Positions 1,378 to 57,498 are shown, numbered from the stretch's first letter. The stretch: DNA of 64,000 bases from a virus (IMGVR_UViG_3300010429_000387:128001-192000); one strand, 5' to 3'. Program-made: numbers and translations. The notes: generated from the sequence alone by a model not told the origin.

Positions 1378-3024
1378 ATGGGCTTCGCCAAGACTGCCAG
1401 GGCTAGGGTCACTCAACCGGTCATCAACCAGGCTGGGTGGGTGGACATTCGCTCGAAGGCGTCTTTCCCGGTACCTTCGTTTGAATTGAGGAGTGCTGCT
1501 CAGGTTGTCCTTCAACAGTACGACCCTGCACAGTACCTCCTGTCCCATTGTACCATCATCGCCTCGGTTGACACTGAGAACCCTGGACTCCCCACCGGGG
1601 TCCAGATGTACGACGGAACTCAGATCAACCGGAAATACCCCGACTACCAAGTCACCCTCGGCACCACCAAGTACATCAACAACAACAACGATTGCTGGGA
1701 GCGCAAGCTCCTCCTGGCTTCGTTCCGTACTTTCATTGGTGGTGAGAACTACGTTGAGCACATCCAGATCCCCGAACTCTCCAAGGGGAAGATCATTGAT
1801 GCTGCTGCCCGTGACATCGGTGACTCGGTCTACGTAGACATCTTGATTGCCACTGACCGCAAGCACAAGCCTCTGATTGAGGCTATCACCAGCGGTCAGC
1901 TCAGCACCCTTTCAATGGGGTGTCACGTTGGTTTCACCATCTGTACGAAGTGCGGCAACGTTGCTGAGGATGAGACCCAGCTCTGCCGCCACATCAAGTA
2001 CGAGAAGGGCAATGTCTTCCTAGACTCCAGGGGCCAGCGACGGAAGGTTGCTGAGCTATGCGGGCACATCACGGCCGAACCGGGTTCGGTCAAGTTCATT
2101 GAAGGCAGTTGGGTTGCCAATCCTGCCTTTGCTGGGGCCGTCCTACGGGCCATTCTGGACCCCAAGACTGCTCTTCTGGCTGAAGCTGCCAGGCAGAAGA
2201 TTCAAGTTGCGTTCTCTCGACCAGTAGAGGTTTTCGACTCCTCCTCAATGCAGAAGGCTGCCAGGATTGCCCCGATTGGAGTTGGTGCAAAGGCTGTCCC
2301 ATCGGACCACCTTGCCTACCTCTATGATGGGCCTTCACTTGGGGCACTCAAGGCCCCCCCAGCCTTCTCTGGGTCTGCCAAGGCATCTGAGGCTCGTGAG
2401 GCTCGTTTGAGCCAGATCACGTCAGCTCAGCAGGACTTCCCAGGTCAGGCTGAGCTGAGTGTGGAGCAGAAGGGTCCAGCCCCAGAAGAGGATGGGAACC
2501 CTTTCAAGAAGACCATTGATGACCTCTACAAGTCTCTCGTTGACGAGGTGACTCAGAAGGTTCGCAAGGACCTGTCTCAGGTGGAACAAGACAAAACCAG
2601 AGGCATCCTTGACGAGAATCGCTCGAATCAATCACTCATCAAGTCGGCTATGCGCTACCCCAAGTGGCGTGAGCGGGCGAAGGTGGTTTTGGCTACCGTG
2701 CGAGAGCCCACCAAGGCTCAAAGCATCCTAGCTGGCCTCATTCTCCATGACTTCGGTGGGTGGGAAGCCGTAGCTTCGACCCGACGTTTCACCGGACGTG
2801 AGATTCTTGTTATAGACCGGTTTCTGACACGGATGACCAAGAAGTCTTCCATGGCAGGGGACGGTAGGGTCTACCGCACCGTAATCGCTGTAGGCGGTAC
2901 GGCACCATACGCAGATGTAAATGCCTACCTCACGGCTTGTCGTGGGGTTATGGGCCGTACACCGACAGGGTCCGAGAGGACTCAGCTCTTGGAGAAGGGC
3001 AAACTTTTTGCTCTCGGCCTCTAA
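1378..3024 (+). CDS. Prohead (capsid maturation) serine protease with C-terminal extension
   Basis: NYVEH His motif, GKIIDA, LSMGC Ser motif followed by CTKC, IEGSWVANPAF; position upstream of scaffold, decoration and capsid genes. Confidence 0.75.
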   Translation: MGFAKTARARVTQPVINQAGWVDIRSKASFPVPSFELRSAAQVVLQQYDPAQYLLSHCTIIASVDTENPGLPTGVQMYDGTQINRKYPDYQVTLGTTKYINNNNDCWERKLLLASFRTFIGGENYVEHIQIPELSKGKIIDAAARDIGDSVYVDILIATDRKHKPLIEAITSGQLSTLSMGCHVGFTICTKCGNVAEDETQLCRHIKYEKGNVFLDSRGQRRKVAELCGHITAEPGSVKFIEGSWVANPAFAGAVLRAILDPKTALLAEAARQKIQVAFSRPVEVFDSSSMQKAARIAPIGVGAKAVPSDHLAYLYDGPSLGALKAPPAFSGSAKASEAREARLSQITSAQQDFPGQAELSVEQKGPAPEEDGNPFKKTIDDLYKSLVDEVTQKVRKDLSQVEQDKTRGILDENRSNQSLIKSAMRYPKWRERAKVVLATVREPTKAQSILAGLILHDFGGWEAVASTRRFTGREILVIDRFLTRMTKKSSMAGDGRVYRTVIAVGGTAPYADVNAYLTACRGVMGRTPTGSERTQLLEKGKLFALGL

Positions 3025-3070
3025 GGAACTTTTTATACGAGTCCTCGATTCAAGGAAAGGATCTCCCTCC

Positions 3071-4348
3071 ATGCCCCGTGAGCGCACTACTTGGAACCGC
3101 ACAGAAATCGCAAGGACGGCTGGCCTCAAGGTTGCCGATCCCTACACCATGAACCAGGATCACCCGCAACCGAAAGCGGATGCGTATGTGACTGGGGATC
3201 CCTCTTCCTTTGGTGAGGATGTTCATCCTGCCAACGGGACCTGGGAAGCTGAGTACGCAGGAGGGCAGGTCAAGAGGAACGAGATCGGGATGCCGGAGAT
3301 GAGGGGTGATACCTTCAACCATCCCGAGAAGACCGCCTCTGAAGAGGTCCTGACCAAGAAGGCGGCTCTCTGTGTCGCCATCGCTCGGGCGATCCTCCCC
3401 AAGACGGCATCCTCCACCGAGATCGAAGACCAGTCCCTTTCCTTCATGCACCTTCCCGACTCAGAGGTCATGAGCACCTACACCCGACTGGCACAGGACC
3501 AGAAGGAAGGTCAGGAGGAGCAGGCCCAGGCTCAGCAGAAGCAGGGTGGCGAGATGCCTCCCCAGTTCAAGGAGAACGCTGAGAAGAAGAAGGAAGAGGC
3601 CGAGGCCAAGAAGGAGCAGGACAAGAAGGCTCAGGACCAGAAGGAAGGTCAGGGACAGCAGGATCAGGCTCAGGGACAGCAGAAGCAGGCTCAGCAGGAG
3701 CAGATCGCCCAGCTCCAGCAGCAGGCTCAGCAGATCCAGCAGCAGATCGCCCAGCTCCAGCAGCAAGCTCAGGCCCAGCAGCAGGCTCCTGTCGCCCAGG
3801 GTCAGCAGGTCCAGAGCCAGGCTCAGCAGGTTGCCCAGGCAGTCCAGCAAGCCATCGCTCAGGGTCAGGACCCAGTCCAGGCCGTTCAACAGATCATGCA
3901 GCAGCAGGTCCCTGTTGCCCAGCAGCAGGCTCCTATCGGACAGGATGCTGAACTCATCGACGCCATGCTTGCTCAGGACCCCATCCAGGCCCCCACGGCT
4001 GAGATGGAGATCCAGATCGAGACACCCTCGATGGATGTTGGTGAAGTCCAGCTTGGACCGGAGGATGATGTCCTCAACCAGCTCTTCGCCAGCAATGCTG
4101 AAGTTCGTCTGGCCCAGCAGGCTCAGGGACAGGACCCAGACCAGGATCAGGGTCAGGCCCAGCAGAAGCAGGCCCATGTGGTCCGCACTGCCTCCATGCG
4201 TACCGTCGGGACTCGTCCCACTGGTGGCGTGAGCCAGATTGGTGGCCTCCCCTCAGCCGGTTCTTCTGGTGGTGGGGACAAGCTGTCGAGCCTCTGGAAC
4301 TCGGCACCCGATGTTCGTGAGGCATTTGGCCTTCCGACAAACCGATGA
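3071..4348 (+). CDS. Putative scaffolding protein, Gln-rich
   Basis: AAGGAAAGGA RBS before ATG 3071; long Q/E/A-rich helical region; sits between protease and decoration/capsid genes. Confidence 0.65.
   Translation: MPRERTTWNRTEIARTAGLKVADPYTMNQDHPQPKADAYVTGDPSSFGEDVHPANGTWEAEYAGGQVKRNEIGMPEMRGDTFNHPEKTASEEVLTKKAALCVAIARAILPKTASSTEIEDQSLSFMHLPDSEVMSTYTRLAQDQKEGQEEQAQAQQKQGGEMPPQFKENAEKKKEEAEAKKEQDKKAQDQKEGQGQQDQAQGQQKQAQQEQIAQLQQQAQQIQQQIAQLQQQAQAQQQAPVAQGQQVQSQAQQVAQAVQQAIAQGQDPVQAVQQIMQQQVPVAQQQAPIGQDAELIDAMLAQDPIQAPTAEMEIQIETPSMDVGEVQLGPEDDVLNQLFASNAEVRLAQQAQGQDPDQDQGQAQQKQAHVVRTASMRTVGTRPTGGVSQIGGLPSAGSSGGGDKLSSLWNSAPDVREAFGLPTNR
3490..3930 (+). repeat. Low-complexity CAG-rich (poly-Gln) coding repeat
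   Basis: Repeated CAGATCGCCCAGCTCCAGCAGCA and CAGGACCAGAAGGAAGGTCAG units. Confidence 0.8.
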
Positions 4349-4470: not shown

Positions 4471-5094
4471 ATGTCGCTACGCGGACAAAGCTCGGGAGAC
4501 TTCAGGGAGACTAGCGGTCGAGTGCAGCTCTTCCATGTCGTCACACGCAACAGCGTGGGCGCCCTGGTAGCAGATGCGTTCACCCAGGACAACCCGGTCG
4601 TCTACACGAGCGCCAACGTCAAGTCCACCACCCTCACGGGTATCACCAAGAAGGGCGTTCTTGGTGGCTCGGTGGCATTCACTCGCCCTCAGGCCGGGAA
4701 CAACGTCATTGGTGGACCCTCTGTCACCGCTGGCCCAGCATTCCTTGCTGGCATCCGCCCCCTCGGCATCTTCATCAATGATGCAGTGGGCAACGCCTAC
4801 GAGAACACTCCCGGACCAGCCTCCGGTCGTGGACCGTATGTCTCGGGCTCCGGCTCGACCATTGGCGTCACCCTCTACGAGACTCAGAAGCTCCAGGGTG
4901 CTGGTGCTGGTGATGCTCTCACGTACACCCCCGGACAGAAGCTCTACGCCTCTGCCAACGGACTCCTCACGAACCGGATCGAGGACGCATACGAGTACCT
5001 TCAGGGTGACACCACGGGCGTCACTGTGATGGGCATCGTCAAGGCTGCTCCGGACGCCAACACCCCCATGCTCGTGCTGGACCTCCGAGTCTGA
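4471..5094 (+). CDS. Putative head decoration/cement protein
   Basis: AAGGAG RBS; about 200-aa beta-rich protein (RPLGIF, YTPGQKLYASANGLLT, VMGIV) directly upstream of the major capsid gene. Confidence 0.65.
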   Translation: MSLRGQSSGDFRETSGRVQLFHVVTRNSVGALVADAFTQDNPVVYTSANVKSTTLTGITKKGVLGGSVAFTRPQAGNNVIGGPSVTAGPAFLAGIRPLGIFINDAVGNAYENTPGPASGRGPYVSGSGSTIGVTLYETQKLQGAGAGDALTYTPGQKLYASANGLLTNRIEDAYEYLQGDTTGVTVMGIVKAAPDANTPMLVLDLRV

Positions 5095-5117: not shown

Positions 5118-5990
5118 ATGGTAACCAACGAGATCAAGCAACAGATCATCTCGGAGTACATCAAGACTGCCGCTGGCCGAGCCAAGCTGGCTGCCTCGAT
5201 GATCCAGCCCCTCCGCCTCCGTCGTGACTACACGGCAGTGGGTCGCAAGACCTTCCTTGTCGAGCAGTTGCCTGACGGAGCACTCCCGATCTATGACAAG
5301 GATCCGGATGTGACCGCCTACGTCGTGGGTGAGGAAGGTGAGAACATTCTCGCCATCCAGAAGCCTCGCCGGGTCATCTTCCCCTTGTTCGAGATCGCCT
5401 CGAACCCGGAGATCCCCCTCACCCAGATCAAGGAGCGTCGCTTCGATCTGATTGAGAGGGCTCAGGACCTCGCCAAGGCCCAGATCCAGGCTGCTGAGGA
5501 TGAGCGTGTGTTTGCGGTTCTGGACAGCATTGCTGTCTCGGGCTTCGACACCCTCCCCGGCCAGACCAACCCGGACATCAACGTGGTTGCCCCCATCTCT
5601 CCGAGCGTCCTCGCTGACGCATTCGCTGAGGTGGAGCGTCACGACCTCCGAGTTGCCAGGATCTACATGAATGCGACGGACTATGCGGACATCCGCAAGT
5701 TCGGTCGTGACATCCTGGACATCGAGAGCCAGGCCGTTCTGCTCAAGACTGGTCTCCAGGCCACCCTCTGGGGCGCCCAGATCATCACGAGCCGTCTGGT
5801 CCCTGCTGGCTTCGTGTACATCGCTGCTGAGCCCGAGAACTTCGGTCGCTTCCCCGTCCGCACGGAACTCACCGTTCTGTCGGCCGACGACCCCAAGGCT
5901 CGGACCATCGGCTTCTCCTGCTTCGAGAACGTCGGCATCGGCGCCTTCAACCCCCGTGGCCTCACCCGCCTGGTGGTTACCCGAGTCTGA
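5118..5990 (+). CDS. Major capsid protein (HK97-like fold, short)
   Basis: Strong codon bias; E-loop-like segment (FLVEQLPDGALPIYDKD...VGEEG), spine helix (LIERAQDLAKAQIQAAEDERVF), C-terminal FENVGIGAFNPRG; followed by a terminator. Confidence 0.85.
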   Translation: MVTNEIKQQIISEYIKTAAGRAKLAASMIQPLRLRRDYTAVGRKTFLVEQLPDGALPIYDKDPDVTAYVVGEEGENILAIQKPRRVIFPLFEIASNPEIPLTQIKERRFDLIERAQDLAKAQIQAAEDERVFAVLDSIAVSGFDTLPGQTNPDINVVAPISPSVLADAFAEVERHDLRVARIYMNATDYADIRKFGRDILDIESQAVLLKTGLQATLWGAQIITSRLVPAGFVYIAAEPENFGRFPVRTELTVLSADDPKARTIGFSCFENVGIGAFNPRGLTRLVVTRV

Positions 5991-8601: not shown

Positions 8602-8651
8602 TCAGCCTACGCTAGTCCTCTTGTAGCTCGCTCGTTTCGACGAGGAGCTGC

Positions 8652-9605
8652 ATGAAGCCTGAATCCAAGACCAGCACGACCCCCGAGTTCCCCGAGGCCA
8701 CTTCGAGGGACCTCGTCACTGCCGCTGTTGCAAAAGAGGCGGGTATCACAGTCTACCTCATGGAGGAGCTGACTGATGCCCGCCTTCGTTGCGAACAGCT
8801 CAAGAAGTTCGTTGCTCAGGCAGTCAGGCTCGTAGCCCAGTCCAGCCACCGAGACCACTTCTACGAGGTGGCTGGGGATGTCATCTATGGGCTTCCAGAC
8901 TCCTTGTTCAAGCTGGACAAGGCCCTGGCAGCTACCGCTTTGGCGGCCTCTCGGTTGGATTACGAGGAGCTGAAGAGTCAGCTCAAACCAGAGAAAGTCA
9001 CGGAGTTGGAGGACGTTCTGAGGAACGTTCGACTCCGGCAGATTGACCGTAGGGCTCCATTCATTCAGCCCATACCTGAAACTTCAGCAGTTCCTACCAA
9101 TCAACCCCAAGGAAAGACCGCCATGTATAAGGCTGCCTCCACGAACCACATTGCAAGTGCCCTTCGGCGCATTGCCTCTGACGTAGAGGCTGCCCGTATC
9201 TCCCCCAAGGAAGCCTCTCTCCGACTCAATCGGATCAAGATGGCCCTCTCCCAGACGGCTCAGGAAGCTGTTGAAGCCATGGGGAATCTTCAGGCCAACA
9301 GCCGGGAAGAGGTCATGAAGGGGTTCAAGTCGGCCAATCCTGACCTCACTGACGATCAGCTCGAAGAGATCGCTGACCAGTGGGAGAAGAACAAGGATGT
9401 GGTCAAGGACAAGTCCGCTGCGGAAGGTGACATCCCTGAGGGTGTCAAGTTGGTACCACTTCGCATTCCAGTCGAAGGGGACTTGGACTCAAGCGACAAG
9501 ACCAAGCTGCTTACAGCGATCCTGGAGTGTGTCACTGGGTTCAAGTCCCGACTGACAGGCCCCTCGAAGAAGGTGATTGAGCAAGTTTACCTGGGAGACT
9601 TCTGA
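8652..9605 (+). CDS. Helical hypothetical protein, candidate internal head protein (possible internal start 9123)
   Basis: GAGGAG RBS; late-type motif at 8613; KEA, KTA, KAAS, RRIAS, KSAA motifs. Confidence 0.7.
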   Translation: MKPESKTSTTPEFPEATSRDLVTAAVAKEAGITVYLMEELTDARLRCEQLKKFVAQAVRLVAQSSHRDHFYEVAGDVIYGLPDSLFKLDKALAATALAASRLDYEELKSQLKPEKVTELEDVLRNVRLRQIDRRAPFIQPIPETSAVPTNQPQGKTAMYKAASTNHIASALRRIASDVEAARISPKEASLRLNRIKMALSQTAQEAVEAMGNLQANSREEVMKGFKSANPDLTDDQLEEIADQWEKNKDVVKDKSAAEGDIPEGVKLVPLRIPVEGDLDSSDKTKLLTAILECVTGFKSRLTGPSKKVIEQVYLGDF

Positions 9606-9608
9606 GCC

Positions 9609-10631
9609 ATGCGAGACCCCTGGAAAGTATCGTCCGAAGACGACAAGCAGTCCCGGTTCGAGGAGGGCAAGCCTGCTGACCCCACCAAGAACATGAGCCC
9701 CGAAGACGCCAAGGAGTGGAAGGCTCAGAACGACAAGAACAAGGACAACTTCAAGTCCGCTGCCTCCGCCTCTGAGCTGAAAGAGATGCAGGAGCTTCTG
9801 AAGGAGAAGGGGTACGACCCCAAGGATGCCAAGAAGCTCCAAGGCGAGGGGATGGGTACTCATGAGCTGGAGCGTCGTCTGAAGGAGAAGGGGGGTCTTG
9901 AAAGGACCCACGGCCTCAAGAAGAAGACGGCTGCCTCTGAGGATGACAGGATCAACCGCTTAGTTCAGTCCATCGAGGGTGATCTGGAGCAGTTCAAGTC
10001 TGCCTGGAAGAAGTACCAGGGCGACCCTGGGAAGTACAAGCCCCAGCTCGAAAACGCCAAGCGGGACCTGACTGCTATCGGTACCGCTACCCGTACTGCC
10101 ATCCGAACCCTTGAGGGTCTGAGCAAGACAGCCTCCCTTCGCAACTTTGTTCGTTTGGCGAACATGAAGTTTGCCACCATCAGCGACCAGGACACACTCG
10201 AAGGTCTCCTTGAGATGGAGATCGAGTCGATGGACGGGGACCGGTCTGAGGCCAGCCTGAACTCTGAGATCAAGAGTGCGGCCAAAGCCTATGACTCAGC
10301 CGTTGAGAAGTCTCTCAAGGAATGGGCCACCAAGAACCTCGACAAGTTCGACCTGGAAGACGGACCTCTGAAGGGGTCCAAGGATGCTGATGATGTGGTG
10401 GGTGTCCTGATGGACCTCCGTGGTGGGGCAGGATACCTCTACTTCATGGAAGCCGAGGGTCATGGTGTTGGTACTTGGGACGGGGATTGGGATCCCTGCT
10501 TCAAGGAGACCAAGACCATCGAGGAGTTGTCCAAGTGGATGAAGGGCAAGACCAAGGGCCAGTACCAGAAGCTCAAGAGCGCTCTGGAGGAACGGGCGAT
10601 GGAGCTTGTTCCGGAGCCTGACGAGGAATGA
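9609..10631 (+). CDS. Highly charged modular protein, candidate internal head protein
   Basis: K/E/D-rich modules delimited by KSAAS, KTAAS, KTAS. Confidence 0.7.
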   Translation: MRDPWKVSSEDDKQSRFEEGKPADPTKNMSPEDAKEWKAQNDKNKDNFKSAASASELKEMQELLKEKGYDPKDAKKLQGEGMGTHELERRLKEKGGLERTHGLKKKTAASEDDRINRLVQSIEGDLEQFKSAWKKYQGDPGKYKPQLENAKRDLTAIGTATRTAIRTLEGLSKTASLRNFVRLANMKFATISDQDTLEGLLEMEIESMDGDRSEASLNSEIKSAAKAYDSAVEKSLKEWATKNLDKFDLEDGPLKGSKDADDVVGVLMDLRGGAGYLYFMEAEGHGVGTWDGDWDPCFKETKTIEELSKWMKGKTKGQYQKLKSALEERAMELVPEPDEE

Positions 10632-11512
10632 ACCAACCTCTCGTCAGCCGACCCCCCTACGGATCTCCCGTTTCCCAGTCGGGTCTCCCTCAAGGGGACC
10701 CTGCTGGGAAGGGTGTGTCGTTGGACCCGTCCATTCCAGGGGTCTCCACCTACGTCAAGCCCTCTGGGGAGGCCCCCAGGGAGCCCAGCGTGGAAGACTC
10801 CTCCATGTACCGGGTGGATAACGCCGACAACCTCCTAAAGGACCAGGGGCGGCAAGACGAGATAGACCACTCCCAGGCCAAGCCAACCTACCAACGCCCA
10901 GGGGAGCAGAACAGCAGCCCCAAGACCAAGTACCCCTATCGGGATGGGGTACCCAACCGACACAACGCAGCCCTCATCGAGCGTGTAGCTCGGAGGGCTG
11001 CTGATGAGGTCATCGTCCAGAACGTGGTCAACCTCTGGCTGCTCAAGACAGCCCATGAGGTGACCATCCCACTGGAGGGGCAGGTCAAGGTAGCAGTCAA
11101 GCTCTCTGAGGTGGAGTCCGGGCTCAACCCAAAAGTGTTGGAGAGAGCCCAGAAGTGCTCCGTTGGACTCAAGAGGGCTGATACAGGAAACCTCAGGTGG
11201 ATCTTTACTGTTGACGCCGGGAACGGTCCAAAGTTGGTTCGCCTGAAGGCTACCCGCAAGGGGAACACCACAGCCCTCGCCAAGATGGACGTGGCCTTCT
11301 CTTGCTCTTGTAAGGCTTGGAGGTGGCTTGGTTCCGAGTACCATGCCAAGGGGGAAAAGTATCTCGATGGGAAGCCCACCGGGACTGCTTCGACCCCTGA
11401 CATCAAGGACCCGGAGAGGATCAATCGGGTCTGTAAGCACGTTGCCGCTGTGATCAACCAAGTTCGGGGCTGGACAGTCCCGGTCAAGAAGAAGAAGGCG
11501 GCTCCCAAATGA
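10628..11512 (+). CDS. SWIM-type zinc-finger protein
   Basis: CSC...CKH motif (FSCSCKAWRW...VCKHVAAV); ATGA overlap with the previous gene. Confidence 0.7.
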   Translation: MNQPLVSRPPYGSPVSQSGLPQGDPAGKGVSLDPSIPGVSTYVKPSGEAPREPSVEDSSMYRVDNADNLLKDQGRQDEIDHSQAKPTYQRPGEQNSSPKTKYPYRDGVPNRHNAALIERVARRAADEVIVQNVVNLWLLKTAHEVTIPLEGQVKVAVKLSEVESGLNPKVLERAQKCSVGLKRADTGNLRWIFTVDAGNGPKLVRLKATRKGNTTALAKMDVAFSCSCKAWRWLGSEYHAKGEKYLDGKPTGTASTPDIKDPERINRVCKHVAAVINQVRGWTVPVKKKKAAPK

Positions 11513-40816: not shown

Positions 40817-41541
40817 TGAACCCTCTCGCTTGGAAGACTCGGGTTGCACAGGCGTACCCCTTTGCACCTCAACCTCATCATCCAGGCGTGAGCCCTTCTG
40901 ACACACCCCCGGATGATGCAACTCACGTCATTTGGCAGGACCCGTCGTCCTACGACCCGTTCTTTCATGGACCCCCGTACCTGCCAGGAATGAAGGTCCG
41001 CATGGACAAGGCAGCCTCCTCCCGTTCTATCGTAGCCAAGGTGGTCTCGGCAGCAGGCCCGGACCTGTCCTCGGTTCTTGTGTTCCTCCGGTCCCTCGCC
41101 TTCATCCACCAGAGCCATCACTGGCTGACCTTCGGTGGTGACTACTACGGGGACCACCTGCTCTTCGAGCGTCTGTACGACCAGACCACAGAGGAGATCG
41201 ACCAGATTGCTGAGAAGGCAGTTGGGGTCGGGACCCCTGTTCAGAAGCTCCATCCTGGACTTCAGGCCAGCCTGGTCGCCCAAGTGGTGGCGAGCTTCTG
41301 CGGGAACGGGGTGACAGAAGGAGCGGGGGAGAGCCCCAACTCCTATGTGGAGACCAGCCTGAAGGCCGAAAGGCACTTCATCAACTGCATGAAGCAGATT
41401 GCCGAGGGGCTGAAGGCTACCGGCACACTCTCACGAGGGGTTGATAACCTCCTCGCTGGGATCGAAGACAAGCACGAGGGGCACATCTACCTCCTCGGGC
41501 AACGTTCCAAGGGTGACCCTTGGAAGGCTACCGGGGCCTGA
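40816..41541 (+). CDS. Dps/ferritin-like four-helix-bundle protein with N-terminal extension
   Basis: HQSHHW...YGDHLLFERLY...EIDQIAEK...HE...YLL Dps-type pattern. Confidence 0.75.
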   Translation: MNPLAWKTRVAQAYPFAPQPHHPGVSPSDTPPDDATHVIWQDPSSYDPFFHGPPYLPGMKVRMDKAASSRSIVAKVVSAAGPDLSSVLVFLRSLAFIHQSHHWLTFGGDYYGDHLLFERLYDQTTEEIDQIAEKAVGVGTPVQKLHPGLQASLVAQVVASFCGNGVTEGAGESPNSYVETSLKAERHFINCMKQIAEGLKATGTLSRGVDNLLAGIEDKHEGHIYLLGQRSKGDPWKATGA

Positions 41542-41575
41542 TACTCGGCATATCCAGATGAAAAGGAAGACCCAA

Positions 41576-42601
41576 ATGGCAAATGAATCGAACCAGACGT
41601 ATGGCGTCGGGGTGGATGTTGGTACCATGAACATCGTCTCCGCTCGCCAAGAGGGCGGAGTTGTCAAGACCAAGAGGGTGCGGGACGCCTTCATCGACCT
41701 CGAAGTAGAGGCGAAGAAGTCCCTCAAGATGGGGAAGGTCTCCTTCTACGAGGATGAGGACTCCGGTCAGCTCATCGTTCTCGGGGACTCAGCCCTCAAC
41801 ATGGCGAACCTCTTCAAGCGTGAAGTCCGGAGGCCCTTGGCGAAGGGCCTCATCTCTGCCGGGGAGCTAGATGCCCAGCGGGTTCTCTCCAAGCTCATTT
41901 TCAGCGTCCTGGGGGAGCCACTGACCGACAAGGAGCACTGCTACTACAGTGTTCCTGCTGAGCCCATCGACATGATGGACCAGGATGTGGTCTACCACAC
42001 CGAGGTCTTCCGTCAGATCGTGGAGGAGCACGACTACAAGGCTCACCCCATGAATGAGGCCATGGCGATCATCTACAGCCAGTGCCCAGACACCAGCTTT
42101 TCTGGCTTGGCAGTCTCCTTTGGCTCAGGGATGTGCAATGTTGCCCTGTCCTACCAGACGATGATGGGGTTGGACTTCTCCCTGGCCCGAGGTGGGGACT
42201 GGATTGACACCCATGCTGCCAAGGCCATCGGGTCCACGGCCAGTAGGATCTGCTCGCTCAAGGAGCGTGGTGGGTTCGACCTCTCTAGCCCACCAAGGGG
42301 GAATCGGGAGGCTGAGGCCATCTCCCTCTACATTCGTTCCCTCGTCCGGTACTGCCTGGAGAAGATTGCTGAGAAGGTTCGCCGTGAGCGCTCTGGGGCT
42401 GATCTGGAGGAGCCGATCCCCTTCGTTGTCTCAGGTGGGACAACCCTTGCCGAGGGCTTCATGACAGTCTTCCAGGAGGAGTTCCACTCTATCAAGAAGC
42501 GTGGGTTCCCCATTGCCATCTCGGAGGTTCGTCGGGCTAAGGACCCGATGACAGCGGTTGCAGAGGGGCTCCTTGTTCTAGCTATGCAGGAACACGAGTA
42601 A
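41576..42601 (+). CDS. Actin-fold ATPase (MreB/FtsA/ParM-like)
   Basis: Phosphate-1 GVDVGTMNI, NEAMA, phosphate-2 SFGSGMCN, adenosine VVSGGT, C-terminal DPMTAVAEG. Confidence 0.85.
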   Translation: MANESNQTYGVGVDVGTMNIVSARQEGGVVKTKRVRDAFIDLEVEAKKSLKMGKVSFYEDEDSGQLIVLGDSALNMANLFKREVRRPLAKGLISAGELDAQRVLSKLIFSVLGEPLTDKEHCYYSVPAEPIDMMDQDVVYHTEVFRQIVEEHDYKAHPMNEAMAIIYSQCPDTSFSGLAVSFGSGMCNVALSYQTMMGLDFSLARGGDWIDTHAAKAIGSTASRICSLKERGGFDLSSPPRGNREAEAISLYIRSLVRYCLEKIAEKVRRERSGADLEEPIPFVVSGGTTLAEGFMTVFQEEFHSIKKRGFPIAISEVRRAKDPMTAVAEGLLVLAMQEHE

Positions 42602-44445: not shown

Positions 44446-47400
44446 ATGGCCCTCGGACCTTTCTCTACCTACGTACCCCCTGGCGTTTACTCTCGCACCC
44501 TGACCGAAGCGAACGTTGCGGCCCTAGTGGCTGGACTTCGCATCCCCGTGATCATCGGGGTCGGCCAAGAGGAGCTGGAACAGCTCGACCTTGAAATGGT
44601 GCGAGGCTCTTCTTCGACTCTCGATCAGCAGATCGTGAACGAGGATGTGACCCTCCGCTGGATCGTGGACGACACCAACCCCACGAACCCGACCCTTGGT
44701 GCGAACGACGGGACCAAGACCCGGTTCAAGGTTCGCAACTTCCCGTTGGTTGACGGGCAAGGCTTCGGCCGTACCACGAACGATGTCCGGTCTGTGACCG
44801 TGACCGTCGATGGGATCCCGGTGGCCGTTGGATCTGTTCGGGGCTCCTCTGGAGAGGTCATCCTTCAGGTTCCCCCTCCTTCCACGGCAGTGGTCCGATG
44901 CACCTACTTCTTCCATCGTGGTGACACGGCCTTCACGGATGACGTGTCGGACCAGGTCACTGCTACGGCTGCCACGATCATCACCCCTGGCTTCGAGCCC
45001 TACAACATCGTGGCTGGCTCCAACGACACCCTGAAGATCCGGGTGGACGGTGGAGTGGAGTACACGGTGACGTTCCTCCCTGGTTCTGGAACCACGGCGG
45101 CTTCGCTCAAGACCCAGATTGATGCCGGAGTCATTGCCGGGCTGTCTACCTCGGTCTTCGTCGCCAACGACGGAAGCAACCACCTTCAGTTCACGGCCCA
45201 GACCTCTATCGAGATCGGGACCGGAAGTGTCAACGGGATCCTCGGTCTCTCCAATGGGCAGAAGACCTCCCGGAACCAGAGCTTCAGGGTCTACCAGATC
45301 CCGATGGTCGATGGGACCTCTGGGGGCGTTACCACTACCGACCCCTCGAAGGTGGTGGTCAAAGTCAACAACGTCCAGGTGATCCCGACCTCGGTCGATG
45401 GTACTCATGGTCTTGTGACCCTTGGCTTCGCACCCCCTCCAGGGTCGAGCGTGGTCATCACCTACTGGGCCAACACCTGGCAGGACACCTTTGACTACCT
45501 CCCCAACACCCTGGTCACCAACGTCATTCGGGCGGGAATCTCCCCGAACCGTAGCGACTACATCCAGGGCCAGGACTTCGTGGTGAGCAACCCGTCTCCG
45601 GACGTGTCGATCATCCACTGGGGTGCCAGCTACTCCGTCTCCTCGACCCTCAGGACACCCGGTGCTGAGCCTCTGGATGAGTCTCAGATTATCCCGACGA
45701 TGGTGGACGACAAGCTGTGGTTGGCCCCTTGCACGGCCTTCGTGGACACCTCGGTCATCCCGGCCAGGGCAAGCACCACGGTCTTCGTGCTCCCCGAGGT
45801 CCCCACCACAGGGAACGGCCGTGACACGGTTCTCGGGACCCAGACCTACAGCAGCATCGCCAATAGCCGGATGGACCTCGTCACGAACCGTCCGGACCTG
45901 GTGATTGCCCGAGTGGGCAGAACCCTCCGTGATGCCCTCGGTCGCCCAGCGGCCAAGGTGGTTGCGGTGGATGGGTCTTCCAAGAAGATCGTCCTCAAGG
46001 ACCCGCTTCCCCCGGACTGGAACGTGTATGCCACGTTCAACTACAGCCGTCTGGTGGATGACACCTATATCTTCACCAACAAGACCCCAGGCCCCATCGG
46101 CCAGGGTCAGTACGAGGTCTTCTCCTCGCTCTTCAACTCGAACCTCTATCAGGTTCGGTTCGGGAGCAAGGGTGGTGGTCTTGTTGAGACCGTCCAGTGG
46201 CCCCGTGGTGTCGAGCAGGTTCCGGATGCCATGCACGTTGGTGGCACCCCGGTTGGCGAGACCGTGACTGTGACCTTCGGTCAGGCAGCCGCTACGAATG
46301 CGGTGTTCACGAACAAGGGTGCCCAGCCCTTCTCGTTCTACAGCCCTTCTTCGGCTACCTGGAGGACCCTCCTCAACGGGAATCCGGTGGTCAGCACCAA
46401 CCTGGTGACTGCCTCCCGAGCCTACATGGTCAGCAAGCCGGTCAAGCTGTCTGGTGGAGGGAACATCACCATCACCAGTGCCTCGAACGACCTGTTCAAC
46501 CTCACCATCGACGGTGTGGACATCGACGTTTCACTGACCCCCGGAACCAGGACCCCGGCCCAGATCGCTACAGACATCAATGCAGCGATTGATGCCGACC
46601 CGGCCTTCTCCTCGGTCACGAACAACTACATGTGTACGGCAATCCCTGGCCCTGGGACTGGCTACACCTTCTTCGTGATCCGTAGCTACTCGACTCCGGG
46701 TGCTCTCCCTGGTGGCTTCGATCACCAGAGCTACGTCCGGATTCGTCAGGGAACGGCGGAAAGCACTCTCGGGTTCACGACCTTCCAGCGTGCTGACGGT
46801 ACCACGGGTGCAGTCAACAAGCCTGCAACCCTCGTTGGGGCCAATGCGGAGGCTTTCGTCTTCACAAGCGGCCTGAACGATGTGCTCAAGGTCCGGATCA
46901 ATGGGGTGGACTTCCAGGTCACGATCAACCCCTCTTCGACCACGGCAACCCTGGTGGTGGCGGACATCAATGCCGTCATCGCTTCTCAGGGCACTGCCTC
47001 GGTAGGAACTCTGGGCAACCTGAACCACGTCCGTATCACGAGCAACATCAACTCCGAGCAGTCCTCGGTGGTGATCCTCAATGGTTCGGCAAATGCCACT
47101 CTCGGCTTCAGTGAGGGTGACTTCGCCAGCCAGTCTCGGGTCAACGTCCAAGAGGTGGTCAACCGCCTCATGGCTACCCCGAACATTGCAGTCACCTCCT
47201 GGGGTTCTGCTGGAAGCCCTGGAACGGCTCCGACTGCCAACACCACGGGTGCGGTGGTCTACCCGACAACCATCGCTGGGCAGGTCTACTTGACCATCGA
47301 GTCCCTGGTGGTGGGTTCTGCCTCCTCCATCGCCTTCGGGACGGGTGCCAACTCGGCCTTCAACATCCTCACTGGAACCCAGATCACCCCTGGGACCGAT

Positions 47401-48765
47401 GGGGACAATGGGGAAGATGCCACGGACAACTTCGTGGTCACCTCGACCAACCCCTATGGCTCTGCCGGAACGGGCGTCCCTGGGCAGACCTACACGGATG
47501 AGCGCACGGGCCTCAGGTTCACGGTCCTCCCGGCTTCGGGTGGTTCGTACACCTCTGGTGGGCACTTCTCCCTGAACGTCTCCCAGACCTTCGAGGTGAA
47601 CCCTGGGGTCCCCTTCCTGGCAATCCCAGGCTTGGAGACCATCGTGACGAACACGGTCAACGTGGGAGTCAACGACACGGCCAACGTCCAGACCTTCAAC
47701 CCGAGCGGGCTGGAGCCGAAGAACGGGGACTTCTACTTCATCTCCTACCGGTTCCTGAAGCAGGACTACTCGACCAGGATCTACCGTCAGTTCAAGACCA
47801 TCGAGGCGAACTACGGCAAGCTCTCAGCCGAGAACCGGGTCACCCTTGGAGCCTACTTGGCGATCCTCAACGGGGCCGTCCTGGTGGGTGTCAAGCAAGT
47901 CCACAAGGTCCCCAACACGAACCAGGCGTCTGCTCAGGTCTTCATCGACGCCATCAACAACCTCGCAACCCCGCTGCCTGGGAACATCAAGCCTGACCTC
48001 CTGGTCCCCCTCTCGACGGACACAGCGGTCTACTCGTTCCTGACCCAGCATTGCGAGATCATGAGCAACATCCGCAACCAGTCGGAGCGGATGGGCTTCA
48101 TCGGGTTCGCTTCGGGTACCAGCCCCACGAATGCTCAGACGGTGGCCCGTAGCCTCTTCAGCCAGAGGATCGTCGCCTTCTACCCGGACTCGGCAGTCAT
48201 CACCCTCTCGAATGAGCTTGGTGAGACCTTCGAGACCCTGGTGGACGGAACCTTCTTCGCTGCTGCTGCTTCGGGTGCGGTCTGCTCCCCAGCAGTTGAC
48301 GTGGCAACCCCCTACACCCGTCGTCGGATTCAGGGCTTCACCCGGATCCCCCGTATCCTCGACCCGGTGGAAGCCAACCAGACTGCGGTTGCTGGTGTGA
48401 CCCTCCTGGAGGACCTGGACCCCATCGTCCGGATTCGTCAGGGCCTCACGACCAACATGACCTCGGTCCTCACCCGTCTCCCGACGGTCACCCAGATTGC
48501 TGACTATGTCAGCATCAACAGCCGCTCGGTCCTCGATGCCTTCGTCGGGACCAAGTTCCTGTCGAGCCGGACCAATGAAGTCGAGGTCTCGATGACCTCG
48601 CTCTTCAACCAGCTCATCCAGCAGGAGATCGTGGCTGCCTTCACGGGTATCTCGGCAGTCATCGACCCAGAGGATCCCACGATTCTCCGTGCCGAAGCCT
48701 ACTACCAGCCGATCTTCCCGCTCCTGTACCTGGTCCTCACGTTCAACCTGCGTGCCCGGATCTGA
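44446..48765 (+). CDS. Contractile tail sheath protein with large insertions
   Basis: N-terminal YVPPGVYSRT; C-terminal sheath core (RIRQGLTT...IADYV...YQPIFPLLYLVLTFNL); GAGGAG RBS. Confidence 0.88.
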   Translation: MALGPFSTYVPPGVYSRTLTEANVAALVAGLRIPVIIGVGQEELEQLDLEMVRGSSSTLDQQIVNEDVTLRWIVDDTNPTNPTLGANDGTKTRFKVRNFPLVDGQGFGRTTNDVRSVTVTVDGIPVAVGSVRGSSGEVILQVPPPSTAVVRCTYFFHRGDTAFTDDVSDQVTATAATIITPGFEPYNIVAGSNDTLKIRVDGGVEYTVTFLPGSGTTAASLKTQIDAGVIAGLSTSVFVANDGSNHLQFTAQTSIEIGTGSVNGILGLSNGQKTSRNQSFRVYQIPMVDGTSGGVTTTDPSKVVVKVNNVQVIPTSVDGTHGLVTLGFAPPPGSSVVITYWANTWQDTFDYLPNTLVTNVIRAGISPNRSDYIQGQDFVVSNPSPDVSIIHWGASYSVSSTLRTPGAEPLDESQIIPTMVDDKLWLAPCTAFVDTSVIPARASTTVFVLPEVPTTGNGRDTVLGTQTYSSIANSRMDLVTNRPDLVIARVGRTLRDALGRPAAKVVAVDGSSKKIVLKDPLPPDWNVYATFNYSRLVDDTYIFTNKTPGPIGQGQYEVFSSLFNSNLYQVRFGSKGGGLVETVQWPRGVEQVPDAMHVGGTPVGETVTVTFGQAAATNAVFTNKGAQPFSFYSPSSATWRTLLNGNPVVSTNLVTASRAYMVSKPVKLSGGGNITITSASNDLFNLTIDGVDIDVSLTPGTRTPAQIATDINAAIDADPAFSSVTNNYMCTAIPGPGTGYTFFVIRSYSTPGALPGGFDHQSYVRIRQGTAESTLGFTTFQRADGTTGAVNKPATLVGANAEAFVFTSGLNDVLKVRINGVDFQVTINPSSTTATLVVADINAVIASQGTASVGTLGNLNHVRITSNINSEQSSVVILNGSANATLGFSEGDFASQSRVNVQEVVNRLMATPNIAVTSWGSAGSPGTAPTANTTGAVVYPTTIAGQVYLTIESLVVGSASSIAFGTGANSAFNILTGTQITPGTDGDNGEDATDNFVVTSTNPYGSAGTGVPGQTYTDERTGLRFTVLPASGGSYTSGGHFSLNVSQTFEVNPGVPFLAIPGLETIVTNTVNVGVNDTANVQTFNPSGLEPKNGDFYFISYRFLKQDYSTRIYRQFKTIEANYGKLSAENRVTLGAYLAILNGAVLVGVKQVHKVPNTNQASAQVFIDAINNLATPLPGNIKPDLLVPLSTDTAVYSFLTQHCEIMSNIRNQSERMGFIGFASGTSPTNAQTVARSLFSQRIVAFYPDSAVITLSNELGETFETLVDGTFFAAAASGAVCSPAVDVATPYTRRRIQGFTRIPRILDPVEANQTAVAGVTLLEDLDPIVRIRQGLTTNMTSVLTRLPTVTQIADYVSINSRSVLDAFVGTKFLSSRTNEVEVSMTSLFNQLIQQEIVAAFTGISAVIDPEDPTILRAEAYYQPIFPLLYLVLTFNLRARI

Positions 48766-49626: not shown

Positions 49627-50850
49627 ATGTACACCAATCGGACTGCCCGAGAGCTTCACGCCAGGCTTCTCCTCTCTATGTCAATGGAGGATGCCAAGGA
49701 AATCCTAGGCTTTCCACCTGGGTCAAGCCCTTCCCCTTCGGAAGTAGCCAGGGCGTACAAGCGCAAGGCCCTGGAGAACCACCCTGATCGGGGTGGGGAC
49801 CCAAGGAAGATGGTGGAGGTCAATGTTGCCAAGGAAGTCTTGGACGGGAAGTCTCGTGGTGACTTCGTCCGGCAGCAGAACGAGGAGGAGAAGAAGAGGC
49901 GTGAAGCCCTTCTGAGGGACCTCGCTACCATCGACCGGGCCAAGAAGCAGGCCGTTCAGGCTATGGCAAACCACTCTCTGTACGTGTTTTCCTTCCGGAT
50001 TCGGGAGCCCTTCCGGGTTTTCCTTATGGATGACTTCGCAGAGGTCCTGGACTTGGTTCATGACCATGCTGAGAAGGGACTCAAGAAGCCCGCCTCCAAG
50101 GATGACGAGAAGGCCCTGAAGAGTGTCCTGGGGGTCATTAAGGAGATGAACGGGATCACCCTTCGGATTGCCAGTAAGTACCGTGGGCTCTCCAACCCTG
50201 GGGAGATCATGCTCTCCCAGCTTGAGGACCGGTACGAGAGTGGCGTGGCTATCCAGAAGATGATGGAAGACCTCTTCGCCAAGTCGAGGCAACTGAATGG
50301 CCTTCTGATGACGGGCCTTGGTCCGACCTATGAAGATGCCATCTCCATCCCGGATAAGGTCTGTGATCGCTACCTGAATGCCCATTCTTGGTTGGAGTCC
50401 TACATACGGGACCTCTCATCCTTCGACCCGAGTGACCTTCAGAAGGTACTGAAGAAGGTCGAGGAGGCTGTGACCGAGGTGCTCGACATCCTGAAGGACC
50501 GGAAGGTGAACCCCAGGGACTTCGACATCTCGCCCAACTGGCAGAGCTGGGACATCCCGGACAGCTTCGACCTTGCCGAGGTGGCAATCCGAAACCCAGT
50601 CAAGCACGCAAGCCAGGACGACGTGATTGCCCTTCGTGTGGCAGCCAGATACAAGGAGGCCGCCCCAAGAGGTAAGGCCCAGGTAGCCATCATGGAGTAC
50701 CTCAAGAGCGGAGATGAGGTACAGCTCACCGACATGACCCGACACCCGTCCTTTCGAGGGGTTCACTTTTCGGCCATCCAGTCGGCTGCTGAAGCCCTGA
50801 AGAAGCAAGGGCTGATCGAGTACAACGGCAAGACTCTCAAGAAAAAGTAA
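49627..50850 (+). CDS. DnaJ J-domain protein with C-terminal winged-helix-like module
   Basis: AKEILG...VARAYKRKALENHPDRGGD J-domain; C-terminal IMEYLK...EALKKQGLIEY. Confidence 0.8.
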   Translation: MYTNRTARELHARLLLSMSMEDAKEILGFPPGSSPSPSEVARAYKRKALENHPDRGGDPRKMVEVNVAKEVLDGKSRGDFVRQQNEEEKKRREALLRDLATIDRAKKQAVQAMANHSLYVFSFRIREPFRVFLMDDFAEVLDLVHDHAEKGLKKPASKDDEKALKSVLGVIKEMNGITLRIASKYRGLSNPGEIMLSQLEDRYESGVAIQKMMEDLFAKSRQLNGLLMTGLGPTYEDAISIPDKVCDRYLNAHSWLESYIRDLSSFDPSDLQKVLKKVEEAVTEVLDILKDRKVNPRDFDISPNWQSWDIPDSFDLAEVAIRNPVKHASQDDVIALRVAARYKEAAPRGKAQVAIMEYLKSGDEVQLTDMTRHPSFRGVHFSAIQSAAEALKKQGLIEYNGKTLKKK

Positions 50851-55906: not shown

Positions 55907-55935
55907 ATCTTGTTGTCCGTCTTCTGCTCTAGGAG

Positions 55936-57498
55936 ATGGCACCCTCACTCATCACAGTCGCTACCGACGGGTTCCGGGACTACGTTGACCTCCCAGACGG
56001 AAGGCAGCTCAATCTCGGGTCTGTTTCGGTCCTGAAGTTGGTGACCTCTCTTGTCTCCAGCTCGACTGACTGTCGAAAAGCACTCGACGGATTCCTAAGC
56101 AAAGGTTCGACCACCATCAAGGTTGACCTGCAAGCTCTGGAGGGGCTTTTGCGTCCTCGCAGGGCACGATGGGCGGGGCATGGTGATCCGTTTATCCCTG
56201 CTGATTCTCGTCTACACTTCAGAGGCGCAAGCATGAACCCAGTCCAAGCTATCCACACCCACATCGACGAAATCGAGAGGCATGTCGCTGCGCTTCAGCA
56301 AGAAGCTGGGCAGGGACAAGAGCAACAGGAGAAGTCCGCTGGCCTTCACAGGGTCGTGGCGGCACTTCTGGGCCTGGTGACTCAAACGGAGGCCGAAGGG
56401 CTCAGCGCTAAGCTGTCAGCCATCGAGTCCACGATTGATGCCATCAACAAGGCTGGCTCTGCCCCCAAGGGCTCGGTTGAGACCCTTCGTGGCCTCACTG
56501 CAAGCCTCTGTGAGGTGGTGACAGGCAAGACTGCTGCTGTGGACGAGGATGCCAAGCGGGAACTCGAACTCTACATGGAGAACGAGTCGAGGCTCTATCG
56601 TCAGAAGCAGGACATCATCAAGAACATCATGCGGAAGATGAAGGGTGGCAAGTACAACCACTCTCTCGCCCCCAAGTTGTGGATGTACTGGGTTGACGAA
56701 GGCGCCAAGATGTACGTCCGTGAGTTCGGTGGGGACGTGAAGACCATGTTCCCGAAGCAACTTCGTGAGGAGTTGGCGAAAGAGATCGCCAACGACCAGA
56801 AGAAGCTCATCGAGGATGGGGAGTACGACAGCCTCAAGGTCGCTGCTGAACAGGATTGGTCAGTTACAGCCTCCGTCAAGTGGAATGAGGGGGATGGGTC
56901 CTGGACAGCTAATGGCGAGGGCGACTTCATCAAGAAGGTCACCATCACAGAGATCAAGGGTCCTGGGATTCCTCTGTACGTGCTGAAACTCACTACTGAG
57001 AAGGGTGAGTTCAAGTACAAGAAGGAGTACAAGAAGCTCAATGACGCCAAGAAGGATGGTGAGACCTGGGTGAAGTCTGATGAGGACGGGGCAAGCCTGA
57101 TCCTCACAGACTTCAAGAAGGTCGCTTCTCAGGGACAGGACCAGCAAGGTCAAGACGAGCAGGAGGCCCCTGAAGAGCAGGCCAAGCAGGCTCAGGACCA
57201 ACAGCAAGACCAGCAAGGGCAGGACAAGGAAGCCTCCCTCCGAATCTCTTCTGAAGAAGTTCTGGTGATCAACGAAGCTCTAGCACACTCGGTCATGGCG
57301 AAGGTCGAGAGTGCTCTGAAGGTGGTCGAGGCAAGTGGACTGCCCGGAACTCAAGTTGCCAAGAAGGACTTGAACACCATCTCGATCAAGCTGGCAAAGC
57401 TGGTTGAGGCGTCGGACCTCAAGAACCCGAGCCTCCGATCCGACCTCACGAAGCTCGCCAGCATGGCAGACAAAGTTCACTCTCACTTCGCCGCCTGA
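55936..57498 (+). CDS. Modular protein, candidate internal head polyprotein (possible internal start 56233)
   Basis: Modules separated by KSA, KTAA, KVAA, KVAS, KQA, KEAS and Q/D/E-rich linkers like the scaffold's. Confidence 0.7.
   Translation: MAPSLITVATDGFRDYVDLPDGRQLNLGSVSVLKLVTSLVSSSTDCRKALDGFLSKGSTTIKVDLQALEGLLRPRRARWAGHGDPFIPADSRLHFRGASMNPVQAIHTHIDEIERHVAALQQEAGQGQEQQEKSAGLHRVVAALLGLVTQTEAEGLSAKLSAIESTIDAINKAGSAPKGSVETLRGLTASLCEVVTGKTAAVDEDAKRELELYMENESRLYRQKQDIIKNIMRKMKGGKYNHSLAPKLWMYWVDEGAKMYVREFGGDVKTMFPKQLREELAKEIANDQKKLIEDGEYDSLKVAAEQDWSVTASVKWNEGDGSWTANGEGDFIKKVTITEIKGPGIPLYVLKLTTEKGEFKYKKEYKKLNDAKKDGETWVKSDEDGASLILTDFKKVASQGQDQQGQDEQEAPEEQAKQAQDQQQDQQGQDKEASLRISSEEVLVINEALAHSVMAKVESALKVVEASGLPGTQVAKKDLNTISIKLAKLVEASDLKNPSLRSDLTKLASMADKVHSHFAA

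Follow-up and report, generated by a model that had tools for sequence, protein, structure and literature searches.

Recurrent Lys/Arg-x-Ala motifs in head-module proteins of an uncultured jumbo phage as candidate sites of a phage G-type prohead protease

The processing of many head proteins at one short motif is textbook knowledge for T4 and the phiKZ-like phages. Here we analyse 64,000 nucleotides of viral DNA (IMGVR_UViG_3300010429_000387:128001-192000), in which the motif [KR]-x-A-[AS] recurs in proteins of the head module, close to a gene for a predicted prohead (head maturation) protease at 1378..3024. This stretch, hereafter the window, comprises bases 128001-192000 of a single contig (407,078 bp) that carries direct terminal repeats and is rated complete, from an uncultured jumbo phage with 58% G+C; all long open reading frames (ORFs) in it lie on the + strand, and positions are counted from its first base unless marked as genome positions. 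From sequence comparison we consider it fairly probable that the motif sites are processing sites of this protease, probably cut after the alanine.

In the T4 prohead core one protease, gp21 (MEROPS S77), serves a whole set of substrates (gp22, gp67, gp68, gp23, gp24, IPI-III and Alt), and our locus has the same layout of one protease and one repeated motif. As in T4, the scaffold holds many copies of the motif, and others are found in the protease, at the N-terminus of the capsid protein and behind short leaders of proteins that are packaged in T4 and may be packaged here; the pattern of enrichment over the proteins was the same when both phages were put through one test. The differences lie in the motif and in the enzyme. 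T4 cuts after Glu in [LI]-x-E, whereas Lys/Arg-x-Ala followed by a small residue is conserved here; gp21 lacks both the zinc ribbon and the helical tail of 250 residues that are present in our protease, which does not reach the Pfam S77 model.

The proteases of two further phages, gp175 of phiKZ and gp245 of SPN3US, also cut after Glu, in [S/A/G]-x-E. These are likewise jumbo phages in which many head proteins carry propeptides (PMC10052503, PMC5694885), and head proteins of giant phages can hold multiple motif copies inside their propeptides (PMC10052503). In contrast to the phiKZ type, the capsid and protease families of our locus are those of phage G. The relevant phage G proteins are the candidate prohead protease gp19 and the capsid protein gp27 (PDB 6wkk). 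Around its catalytic domain gp19 has KTAA, KVAS and KIAS, but the bias is weaker in phage G (K.A 2-2.5 fold).

Herpesvirus assemblin (MEROPS S21) cuts [V/L/I]-x-Ala then Ser at its maturation and release sites. If the phage motif is cut after Ala, it would share with assemblin the P1 Ala, the P1' Ser or Ala, the scaffold as main substrate and a site that frees the scaffold C-terminal peptide (RTAS, 4184..4195). However, P3 is basic here and hydrophobic in assemblin, and no sequence similarity to S21 was detected. HK97, with its protease gp4 and the delta domain of gp5, resembles our locus in that the Ser motif aligns and a Lys stands beside the cleavage site of the capsid precursor, between K103 and S104; it differs in that Lys occupies P1 and in having no separate scaffold or internal proteins. 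Polyvalent proteins, finally, are multi-module proteins encoded among virion genes and predicted to be packaged and processed, some of them with assemblin-like peptidase domains (Iyer et al., 2017, PMC5512222). The product of 55936..57498 is likewise a multi-module protein encoded among virion genes, but its modules match no known enzyme family, and the protease is a separate gene here (it is fused in gp90 of mycobacteriophage Alice).

A literature search for a mapped Lys/Arg-x-Ala site of a phage head protease returned none, which is not proof of absence. The 2025 multi-omics paper on phage G used fully tryptic searches and gives no processing sites, and for cluster C no cleavage site is stated in a preprint on actinobacteriophage capsids. 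As far as we could find, neither a specificity of the predicted kind nor its occurrence throughout the phage G-type clade has been described.

Motif enrichment in the head module and its recurrence in relatives

Expected counts were obtained by shuffling each protein, with shuffling within 20-residue blocks as an extra control, and the 60 + strand ORFs of the window were covered. Throughout, observed counts are set against expected ones. The motif [KR]xA[AS] occurs 72 times against 38.1 (z 5.7), and the shorter [KR]xA 266 times against 213 (z 4.2). The whole excess falls in eight proteins, namely the scaffold and the ORFs beginning at 629, 8652, 9609, 10628, 39686 (probable start 39812), 49570 (probable start 49627) and 55936, which together hold 36 copies against 7.2 (z 11); the other 52 proteins hold 36 against 31. 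It should be kept in mind that these eight had been picked by eye for the motif. Under the 20-residue local shuffles they still gave 36 copies against 7.5, and since the excess survives this control, local Lys/Ala-rich composition is no explanation for it.

Orientation and residue identity both matter. Neither the reversed motif [AS]Ax[KR] nor five permutations were enriched in the window proteins, and the variants [DE]xA[AS], [KR]xG[AS], [KR]xA[DE] and [KR]xA[LIVM] were at expectation. All motif copies that the original prediction had listed are present at the genes it named, their excess over shuffled sequences is real, and its remark that the motif thins out in sheath and tube proteins agrees with the counts (1 against 1.2 and 0 against 0.3). 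The dense recurrence it had described holds for the set of eight, but three of the proteins it named are not above chance: the 10628 protein (2 against 0.6), the Dps-like protein at 40810 (1 against 0.3) and the helicase (6 against 3.5). The fibre protein has 8 copies against 3.5, a count inflated by repeated RTAS-GLR and RGAS-DF units.

A tighter core, [KR]TA[AS], passes the false discovery rate (FDR) in three proteins: the scaffold (3 against 0.04, q 0.006), the 39686 protein (3 against 0.06, q 0.007) and a 691-residue protein upstream of the window (genome 115221..117296; 3 against 0.12, q 0.04). By genome position, an excess of about 2-fold is confined to the structural block (120-140 and 160-180 kb), and the ratio elsewhere is about 1. 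Alanine codons at the sites (GCC/GCT/GCA/GCG 19/14/7/4) mirror general usage (187/121/54/39), and all four Thr codons are used; selection therefore acts on the peptide, and a DNA-level word was ruled out as the cause. Also ruled out were paralogy and internal repeats, the motif-rich proteins being neither paralogues nor internally repeated. Another tag of the same genome, [TS]RF[DES]R[IV]L, does not co-occur with the motif and belongs to a separate system.

The same method was controlled on phage T4. There, [LI]-x-E was enriched in known gp21 substrates, namely gp22 (16 against 5.8), gp21 (7 against 2.5), gp68, gp23 and inh, and was not enriched in terminase, sheath, tube, Hoc or UvsW, while [KR]xA[AS] was flat in T4.

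Homologues of the protease number more than 1300 in metagenomes, and its named relatives come from the 485-kb uncultured phage LR745208, Tunturiibacter phage Tunturi_5, Bacillus phage G, cluster C mycobacteriophages and Erwinia jumbo phages. We applied the motif test blind to every ORF in the head modules of LR745208, Tunturi_5, Alice and phage G, and [KR]xA[AS] recurs in every tested phage that shares the protease family. In LR745208 the protein after the protease has 8 copies against 2.4 and a 614-residue protein 10 against 1.4; in Tunturi_5 the values are 7 against 1.7 for gp332, which follows the protease, and 11 against 2.6 for gp328, annotated as 'DNA ejection protein'. Alice uses the form R-x-A-A, in gp89 (8 against 2.6) and gp90 (8 against 3.3). 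The latter (L003:11872-16407), 1511 residues long and annotated as hypothetical, has the protease domain as its N-terminus, fused to a long tail that carries R-x-A-A copies, including a tandem RTAA-V-RTAA. In phage G the motif is found in the protease gp19 (3 against 0.5), gp7 (6 against 1.5) and the portal (3 against 0.7), and gp21 has K.A 7 times against 2.8; the Glu-type motifs [LI]xE and [LIVA]xE[AGS] are not enriched there. Sheath, fibre and other tail proteins of the four loci are at or under expectation.

We also pooled the ORFs of 80 related head modules by orthologous group. Scaffolds identified by gene position (n=77, of which BLAST recognises only three) hold 413 forward copies against 64, or 6.5-fold, and 82 reversed copies against 63. 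Orthologues of 629..1375 (n=68) gave 171 against 32 forward and 19 against 32 reversed, orthologues of the 8652 protein 186 against 62, and capsid protein orthologues 132 against 40. In unbiased word statistics on 47 non-redundant scaffolds, K.AS (80 against 7.4), TAS (78 against 6.2) and K.A (415 against 142) were outranked only by Gln runs and a few conserved blocks. The scaffold motif reads K 64% / R 36%, then T 40%, A, and S 54% / A 46%. Each of 48 otherwise unrecognisably diverged scaffolds keeps 3-10 copies (48/48), and these turn over between lineages, with 82 sites on 59 lineage-specific columns.

The enrichment is thus non-random, directional, at the level of protein, restricted to head-module proteins and conserved in linkers. 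That it has no function, and merely mirrors Lys/Ala-rich composition, helix propensity, shared ancestry or selection by eye, appears extremely unlikely to us. Lys, Ala, Ser and Thr are indeed common in these proteins, p values for individual proteins of this single genome are modest, and the set was selected post hoc. Yet local shuffles and the reversed and permuted controls do not reproduce the excess, the whole-window excess needs no selection of proteins, and the pattern is replicated in four other phage lineages and in the 77 scaffolds. Moreover, the proteins share no paralogy, and the sites avoid helices in the one good structural model (see below).

The predicted protease and the shell proteins

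The predicted protease (1378..3024, 548 residues) consists of a catalytic domain at about residues 45-290, a variable linker and a helical C-terminal domain (420-548). It matches phrog_18299, 'head maturation protease' (E 2.6e-11), and phrog_2774 (E 3e-22), and is 38% identical to Tunturi_5 gp331, which is annotated as 'head maturation protease'. Phage G gp19 belongs to the same family (31% identity, with an SMGC motif). His128 (1759..1761) and Ser179 (1912..1914, within LSMGC), about 50 residues apart, are invariant in 29 close and 12 distant homologues, and a Cys3-His zinc ribbon lies at residues 189-205. With hhalign, His128 and Ser179 fall onto positions 85/140 of T4 gp21, which we take to be its catalytic residues (E 0.059, statistically weak), and the Ser179 motif falls onto the Ser motif of HK97 gp4 (E 0.096, again statistically weak). 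Inteins typically occupy active sites, and homologue P0047 has an intein insert of about 415 residues exactly between LSMG and C, two residues past the presumed catalytic Ser. Inteins are also present in the homologues P0058, P0061 and P0065. A search of PDB sequences with the protease domain gave no match, and an Atlas lead to Peptidase_S77 (0.91) is weak. As these alignments suggest, the gene most likely encodes a distant member of the superfamily of HK97, T4 and herpesvirus capsid proteases, in which Ser179 would act as nucleophile.

The protease carries the motif on both sides of its catalytic domain. On the N-terminal side, R38-S-A-A (1489..1500, residues 38-41) is a candidate autoprocessing site, embedded in F-E-x-R-x-A-[AST]-Q-V-V, which is kept in 26/29 homologues; a KTAA occupies the aligned place in both phage G gp19 (residue 43) and Tunturi gp331 (residue 33). 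At the end of the domain, K293-A-A-R (2254..2265) is the candidate C-terminal site. Here [KR]-A-A (residues 293-295) is found in 29/29 homologues, A294 and A295 being invariant, and a hypervariable, indel-rich linker starts directly after it; KVAS occurs in the equivalent region of both phage G gp19 and Tunturi gp331, and gp19 has KIAS there as well. The Ala positions do not vary within the clade.

Could the sites be cut by another enzyme, either of the host or an unrecognised phage protease? The host protease Prp does so for staphylococcal phage 80alpha, and the domain encoded by 1378..3024 is without a curated family match, its activity being a prediction. We nevertheless think this very unlikely. 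The motif tracks the protease family across very different hosts (Lysinibacillus, Mycobacterium, Acidobacteria and those of the uncultured clade), and it flanks the catalytic domain of the protease itself in all 29 aligned homologues. In addition, no ClpP-, S78- or S77-type protease was found elsewhere in the complete genome, and neither PF04586 nor PF03420 was found in it, although the control of the S77 search gave no match either.

The scaffolding protein (3071..4348, 425 residues), encoded between the protease and capsid genes, has a Gln-rich central coiled-coil region and an N-terminus that matches the scaffold of LR745208; its start is at 3071 and not at 2921, where the longest ORF begins. 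Its four-residue copies are RTAG (3113..3124), KTAS (3329..3340), KTAS (3401..3412) and RTAS (4184..4195), with further K-x-A copies besides. KTAS at 3329 is kept in 40/48 scaffolds and RTAS at 4184 in 44/48. The latter lies 54 residues before the C-terminus, and a cut there would free the scaffold C-terminal peptide, which may be the capsid-binding part, as it is in many phages.

The major capsid protein (5118..5990) is of the phage G gp27 type (PDB 6wkk, E 1e-60; phrog_2522, E 2e-52; PF05065). Its N-arm reads K-T-A-A-G-R-A-K-L-A-A-S at residues 16-27, giving the copies KTAA (5163..5174) and KLAAS (5184..5198), and the form K-[TS]-A-A-G-R-x-K-L-A-A-S is kept in LR745208 and Tunturi_5 and absent from phage G. 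Just upstream of the capsid gene, in the position of the phage G decoration protein gp26, the 207-residue protein 4471..5094 is depleted of the motif, with no copies of its own and 3 against 17 forward and 14 against 18 reversed in 78 orthologues. Such depletion is as expected for a shell component that must survive. Gene position alone would suggest a decoration-type function.

Further motif-rich proteins surround this core. The 248-residue product of 629..1375, directly upstream of the protease and with a C-terminal zinc ribbon, has five copies (896, 977, 1073, 1133 and 1217) against 0.5 expected, the best single-protein p of the genome (1.8e-4), and two of the positions are kept in 22/40 orthologues. 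The head-module proteins 8652..9605 and 9609..10631 have four copies each (against 1.0 and 0.7); KAAS at 9129 in the former is kept in 15/18, and the latter has [KR]TA[AS] twice against 0.04. At the window's edge, 2..583 is the C-terminal end of a 1062-residue protein that follows the portal gene (genome 125395..128583). It is mildly enriched, and its 87 orthologous ORFs gave 263 against 165 forward and 160 against 166 reversed, with copies of an extended form, R-[VI]-A-[AS]-R-[YF].

From these comparisons we propose that the protease would act inside the assembled prohead. It would trim itself on either side of its catalytic domain, at R38-S-A-A and K293-A-A-R, chop the scaffold at 3-10 sites so that the scaffold could exit the shell, and remove some 18-25 residues from the capsid N-arm. 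Head-internal proteins would be cut behind short N-terminal leaders, as in the 39812 protein and a topoisomerase IB, or between modules, as in the 55936..57498, 8652 and 9609 proteins. This set of substrates is the classical one of scaffold, protease termini, capsid N-arm and internal proteins. The recognition motif is most likely [KR]-x-A-[A/S/G], with Thr favoured at x. By analogy, the scissile bond most likely follows the Ala (P3 Lys/Arg, P1 Ala, P1' small), which we favour because the P3-x-P1 register is shared by T4, phiKZ/SPN3US and herpesvirus assemblin, though sequence does not fix the bond. The claim that the protease cuts after (K/R)-x-A is supported by sequence comparison in so far as the motif behaves like a prohead-protease code, whereas a cut after Ala and a cut after K/R are not separable from sequence.

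Linkers, leaders and candidate cargo

Two proteins illustrate where the motif lies relative to domains. The 39812 protein (39812..40816) consists of a 20-residue N-terminal leader, a twice-repeated LWKY[TV]D domain, a variable linker and a C-terminal block, and has 6 copies of [KR]xA[AS] against 1.0. RAAS (39842) and KTAA (39863) are in the leader, KKAA (40214) and KTAA (40262) in the linker and KTAA (40646) in the C-terminal block. The leader ends in K-T-A-A, two residues ahead of the first LWKYTD domain; in the orthologues of L088 and L090, K-[TV]-A-A likewise lies two to three residues before LWKYTD, in L090 just 7 residues from the start.

The second is the five-module protein 55936..57498 (520 residues; 6 copies against 1.2). 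The public gene call (P0121, 421 residues) begins at residue 100, but homologues conserve the first 95 residues, and the long form is therefore real. Its AlphaFold model, with a predicted local distance difference test score (pLDDT) of 71, has domains at residues 1-75, 102-195, 204-293, 314-363 and 439-519, separated by low-confidence breaks at 76-101, 197-200, 305-330 and 362-436. RGAS (56221), KTAA (56527), KVAA (56836), KVAS (57118) and KEAS (57226) all lie in linkers, K198-T-A-A even in the four-residue break 197-200, and KLAS (57451) is inside a helix. Hence, 5/6 sites are at most one residue from a low-pLDDT inter-domain segment, against 34% expected (P 0.02), and the proposal that motifs mark domain borders is upheld on this model. 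The sites [RK]-G-A-[SG]-M, G-K-x-A-A-V-D-E-D and L-K-[VT]-A-[ASG]-[ED] are kept in position in 30 homologues of about 40% identity, beside indels. Flanks of motif sites are less conserved than those of other K/R residues (in the 55936 family 0.41 against 0.51, p 9e-11; in scaffolds 0.23 against 0.35, p 3e-25).

No Pfam, PHROG or NCBIfam domain was found in the modules of 55936..57498. One module of about 100 residues matches stand-alone viral proteins of 99-115 residues, including one of Klosneuvirus (template modelling score 0.8 on the target, 29-47% identity). The gene has the same position as the motif-rich Tunturi gp328, upstream of 57518..58240, a homologue of Tunturi_5 gp329. The term polyprotein, used in the original prediction for the whole system, suits 55936..57498 and its positional analogues, and those only.

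Short leaders that end in the motif stand on otherwise unrelated proteins, namely the 39812 protein, a type IB topoisomerase and a 129-residue protein. The topoisomerase (PF01028, E 5e-27; genome 120348..121415, L104:12348-13415) has its gene between those for the large terminase and the portal, 6.6-7.7 kb before the window begins, and nine related loci conserve its 12-residue N-terminal leader with the hexapeptide, M-R-x-P-x-L-D-E-x-S-L-RVAARY. The hexapeptide [KR]VAARY has three copies in the proteome, about 0.01 being expected, and these are on three unrelated proteins (genome 117293.. and 120348.., and window 50635..50652), so that two N-terminal leaders upstream of the window share it with a J-domain protein, where it lies near the C-terminus. 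Related head modules contain 34 copies of R-[VI]-A-[AS]-R-[YF] against about 0.7, on at least five unrelated families; on the 129-residue protein it is likewise a conserved N-terminal leader. Across the proteome, [KR][VFILM]A[AS] is found within the first 34 residues 11 times against 4.7. The topoisomerase IB is, by analogy with poxviruses, a candidate virion-packaged enzyme.

Similar leaders (...DQFIA[AS]RVK.RFA[AS]... and ...ATKVAQRFAA...) also occur far from the head module, at genome 254714..254992, 255002..255898, 297977..299419 and 344186..344659. The proteins that bear them may be further substrates or a paralogous leader family.

These leaders bring up the main competing explanation, in which the motif would be a docking or targeting peptide that is bound and not cut. 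A chaperone might read it, or it might bring proteins to the portal, to the scaffold core or to the inner face of the capsid. The presence of R-[VI]-A-[AS]-R-[YF] on so many unrelated families, often as an N-terminal leader, does recall targeting peptides, and some motif copies are inside helices or conserved blocks. In the capsid-targeting sequence of T4 the two roles go together, and binding need therefore not exclude cutting. A pure tag, however, would need neither so many copies in each scaffold (3-10) nor a copy on either side of a protease domain, the turnover of sites between lineages in variable linkers would be unexpected for it, and the distribution of the motif copies that of T4's proven cleavage motif. 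We therefore regard docking without cutting as unlikely.

The J-domain protein itself (49627..50850; PF00226, E 1.5e-6) is a weak candidate substrate. It has five copies against 1.0, including RVAARY at 50635..50652, and its pooled relatives 14 against 7, about 2-fold only. In the helicase, the site before the core is only partly conserved (KFAA, RLAA, RLSS). Pattern scans for relatives returned none for the J-domain and Volactin-like proteins and only two for the helicase. According to the original prediction, the head receives J-domain, Dps-like, SWIM, helicase and winged-helix domains in the form of cleavable cassettes; as worded there it is not supported, with helicase and Dps-like proteins not above chance and the J-domain relatives at about 2-fold. 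The J-domain, Dps-like and helicase proteins are, moreover, separate genes and not domains of one polypeptide. The idea of unrelated enzymes loaded as cleavable cassettes is, in terms of sequence, only partly borne out.

Several points weigh against the sites being processed by this protease. For this phage and its relatives, the literature that could be consulted yielded no proteomic, N-terminal or structural datum for a cut. Even at E 10 the protease domain has no hit among the protease models of Pfam and NCBIfam, its alignment to the T4 and HK97 proteases reaches E 0.06-0.1 only, and the AlphaFold model of the catalytic domain (29 close homologues) is poor, with pLDDT < 50. The HK97 capsid protein is cut after Lys (TFNK then SLGS), and the bond may accordingly follow K/R instead. 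In phage G, the capsid N-arm and the putative scaffold gp21 lack [KR]xA[AS]. After correction over the 451 ORFs of the genome, no single protein is significant for the loose motif (best q 0.08). Some copies may be structural, such as KTAA at 40646, in a conserved block or helix, KLAS at 57451, within a helix of the model, and the sites of 629..1375, which are in well-aligned blocks and may be buried. Finally, shared descent inflates the pooled orthologue counts; since 3-10 copies are kept in all 48 diverged scaffolds, their retention is itself a signal despite this inflation. On balance, we infer cutting at the motif, by this protease and at the bond after Ala, and the presence of the distal proteins in the head.

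If processing takes place as proposed, the motif would provide a simple rule by which propeptides and the ends of mature proteins could be read in phage G, Tunturi_5, the cluster C mycobacteriophages and more than 1300 genomes of uncultured huge phages, and would point to orphan proteins packaged in the head. It would also link phage and herpesvirus capsid proteases in specificity as well as in fold. Since phage G and the mycobacteriophages can be grown in culture, the prediction is open to direct testing. A more far-reaching scenario, which we consider doubtful, is that a large clade with the phage G capsid type combines a capsid protease of herpesvirus-like Ala/Ser specificity and basic P3 with a K/R-x-A tag, extended to hydrophobic-x-R-V-A-A-R-Y, that would serve as an address-and-release label and load topoisomerase IB, the J-domain co-chaperone and 55936-like module chains into the head for injection with the DNA.

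Gene order and other features of the window

Upstream of and into the window, the gene order is large terminase, type IB topoisomerase, portal and the 1062-residue protein, which ends at window base 583. From the window start follow 629..1375, the protease, the scaffold (start 3071), 4471..5094 and the major capsid protein. The position of the protease gene between the portal and the scaffold and capsid genes is the same in LR745208, Tunturi_5 and phage G. Downstream of the capsid gene are several orphan proteins (7282 to 11512), then tail and fibre genes and neck genes. Further on, the 39812 protein is followed by the Dps-like protein, the Volactin-like protein, a tail terminator, the sheath (44446..48765) and a probable tube, and then by the J-domain protein, a UvrD-type helicase, 55936..57498 and the homologue of Tunturi_5 gp329.

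Evolutionary rates within the head module are very unequal. Capsid orthologues have a median identity of 94% and the proteases 50%, and the scaffolds are mostly past BLAST detection. Among the neck and tail genes, the product of 41441..42601 belongs to the actin-like Volactin family (PF25216, E 6e-66). Finally, the internal repeats of a 2220-residue fibre-like protein (19243..25905) are rich in His words, with HKH 9 times against 0.24, DHKH 8, RSDH 9 and DHVH 7 times.

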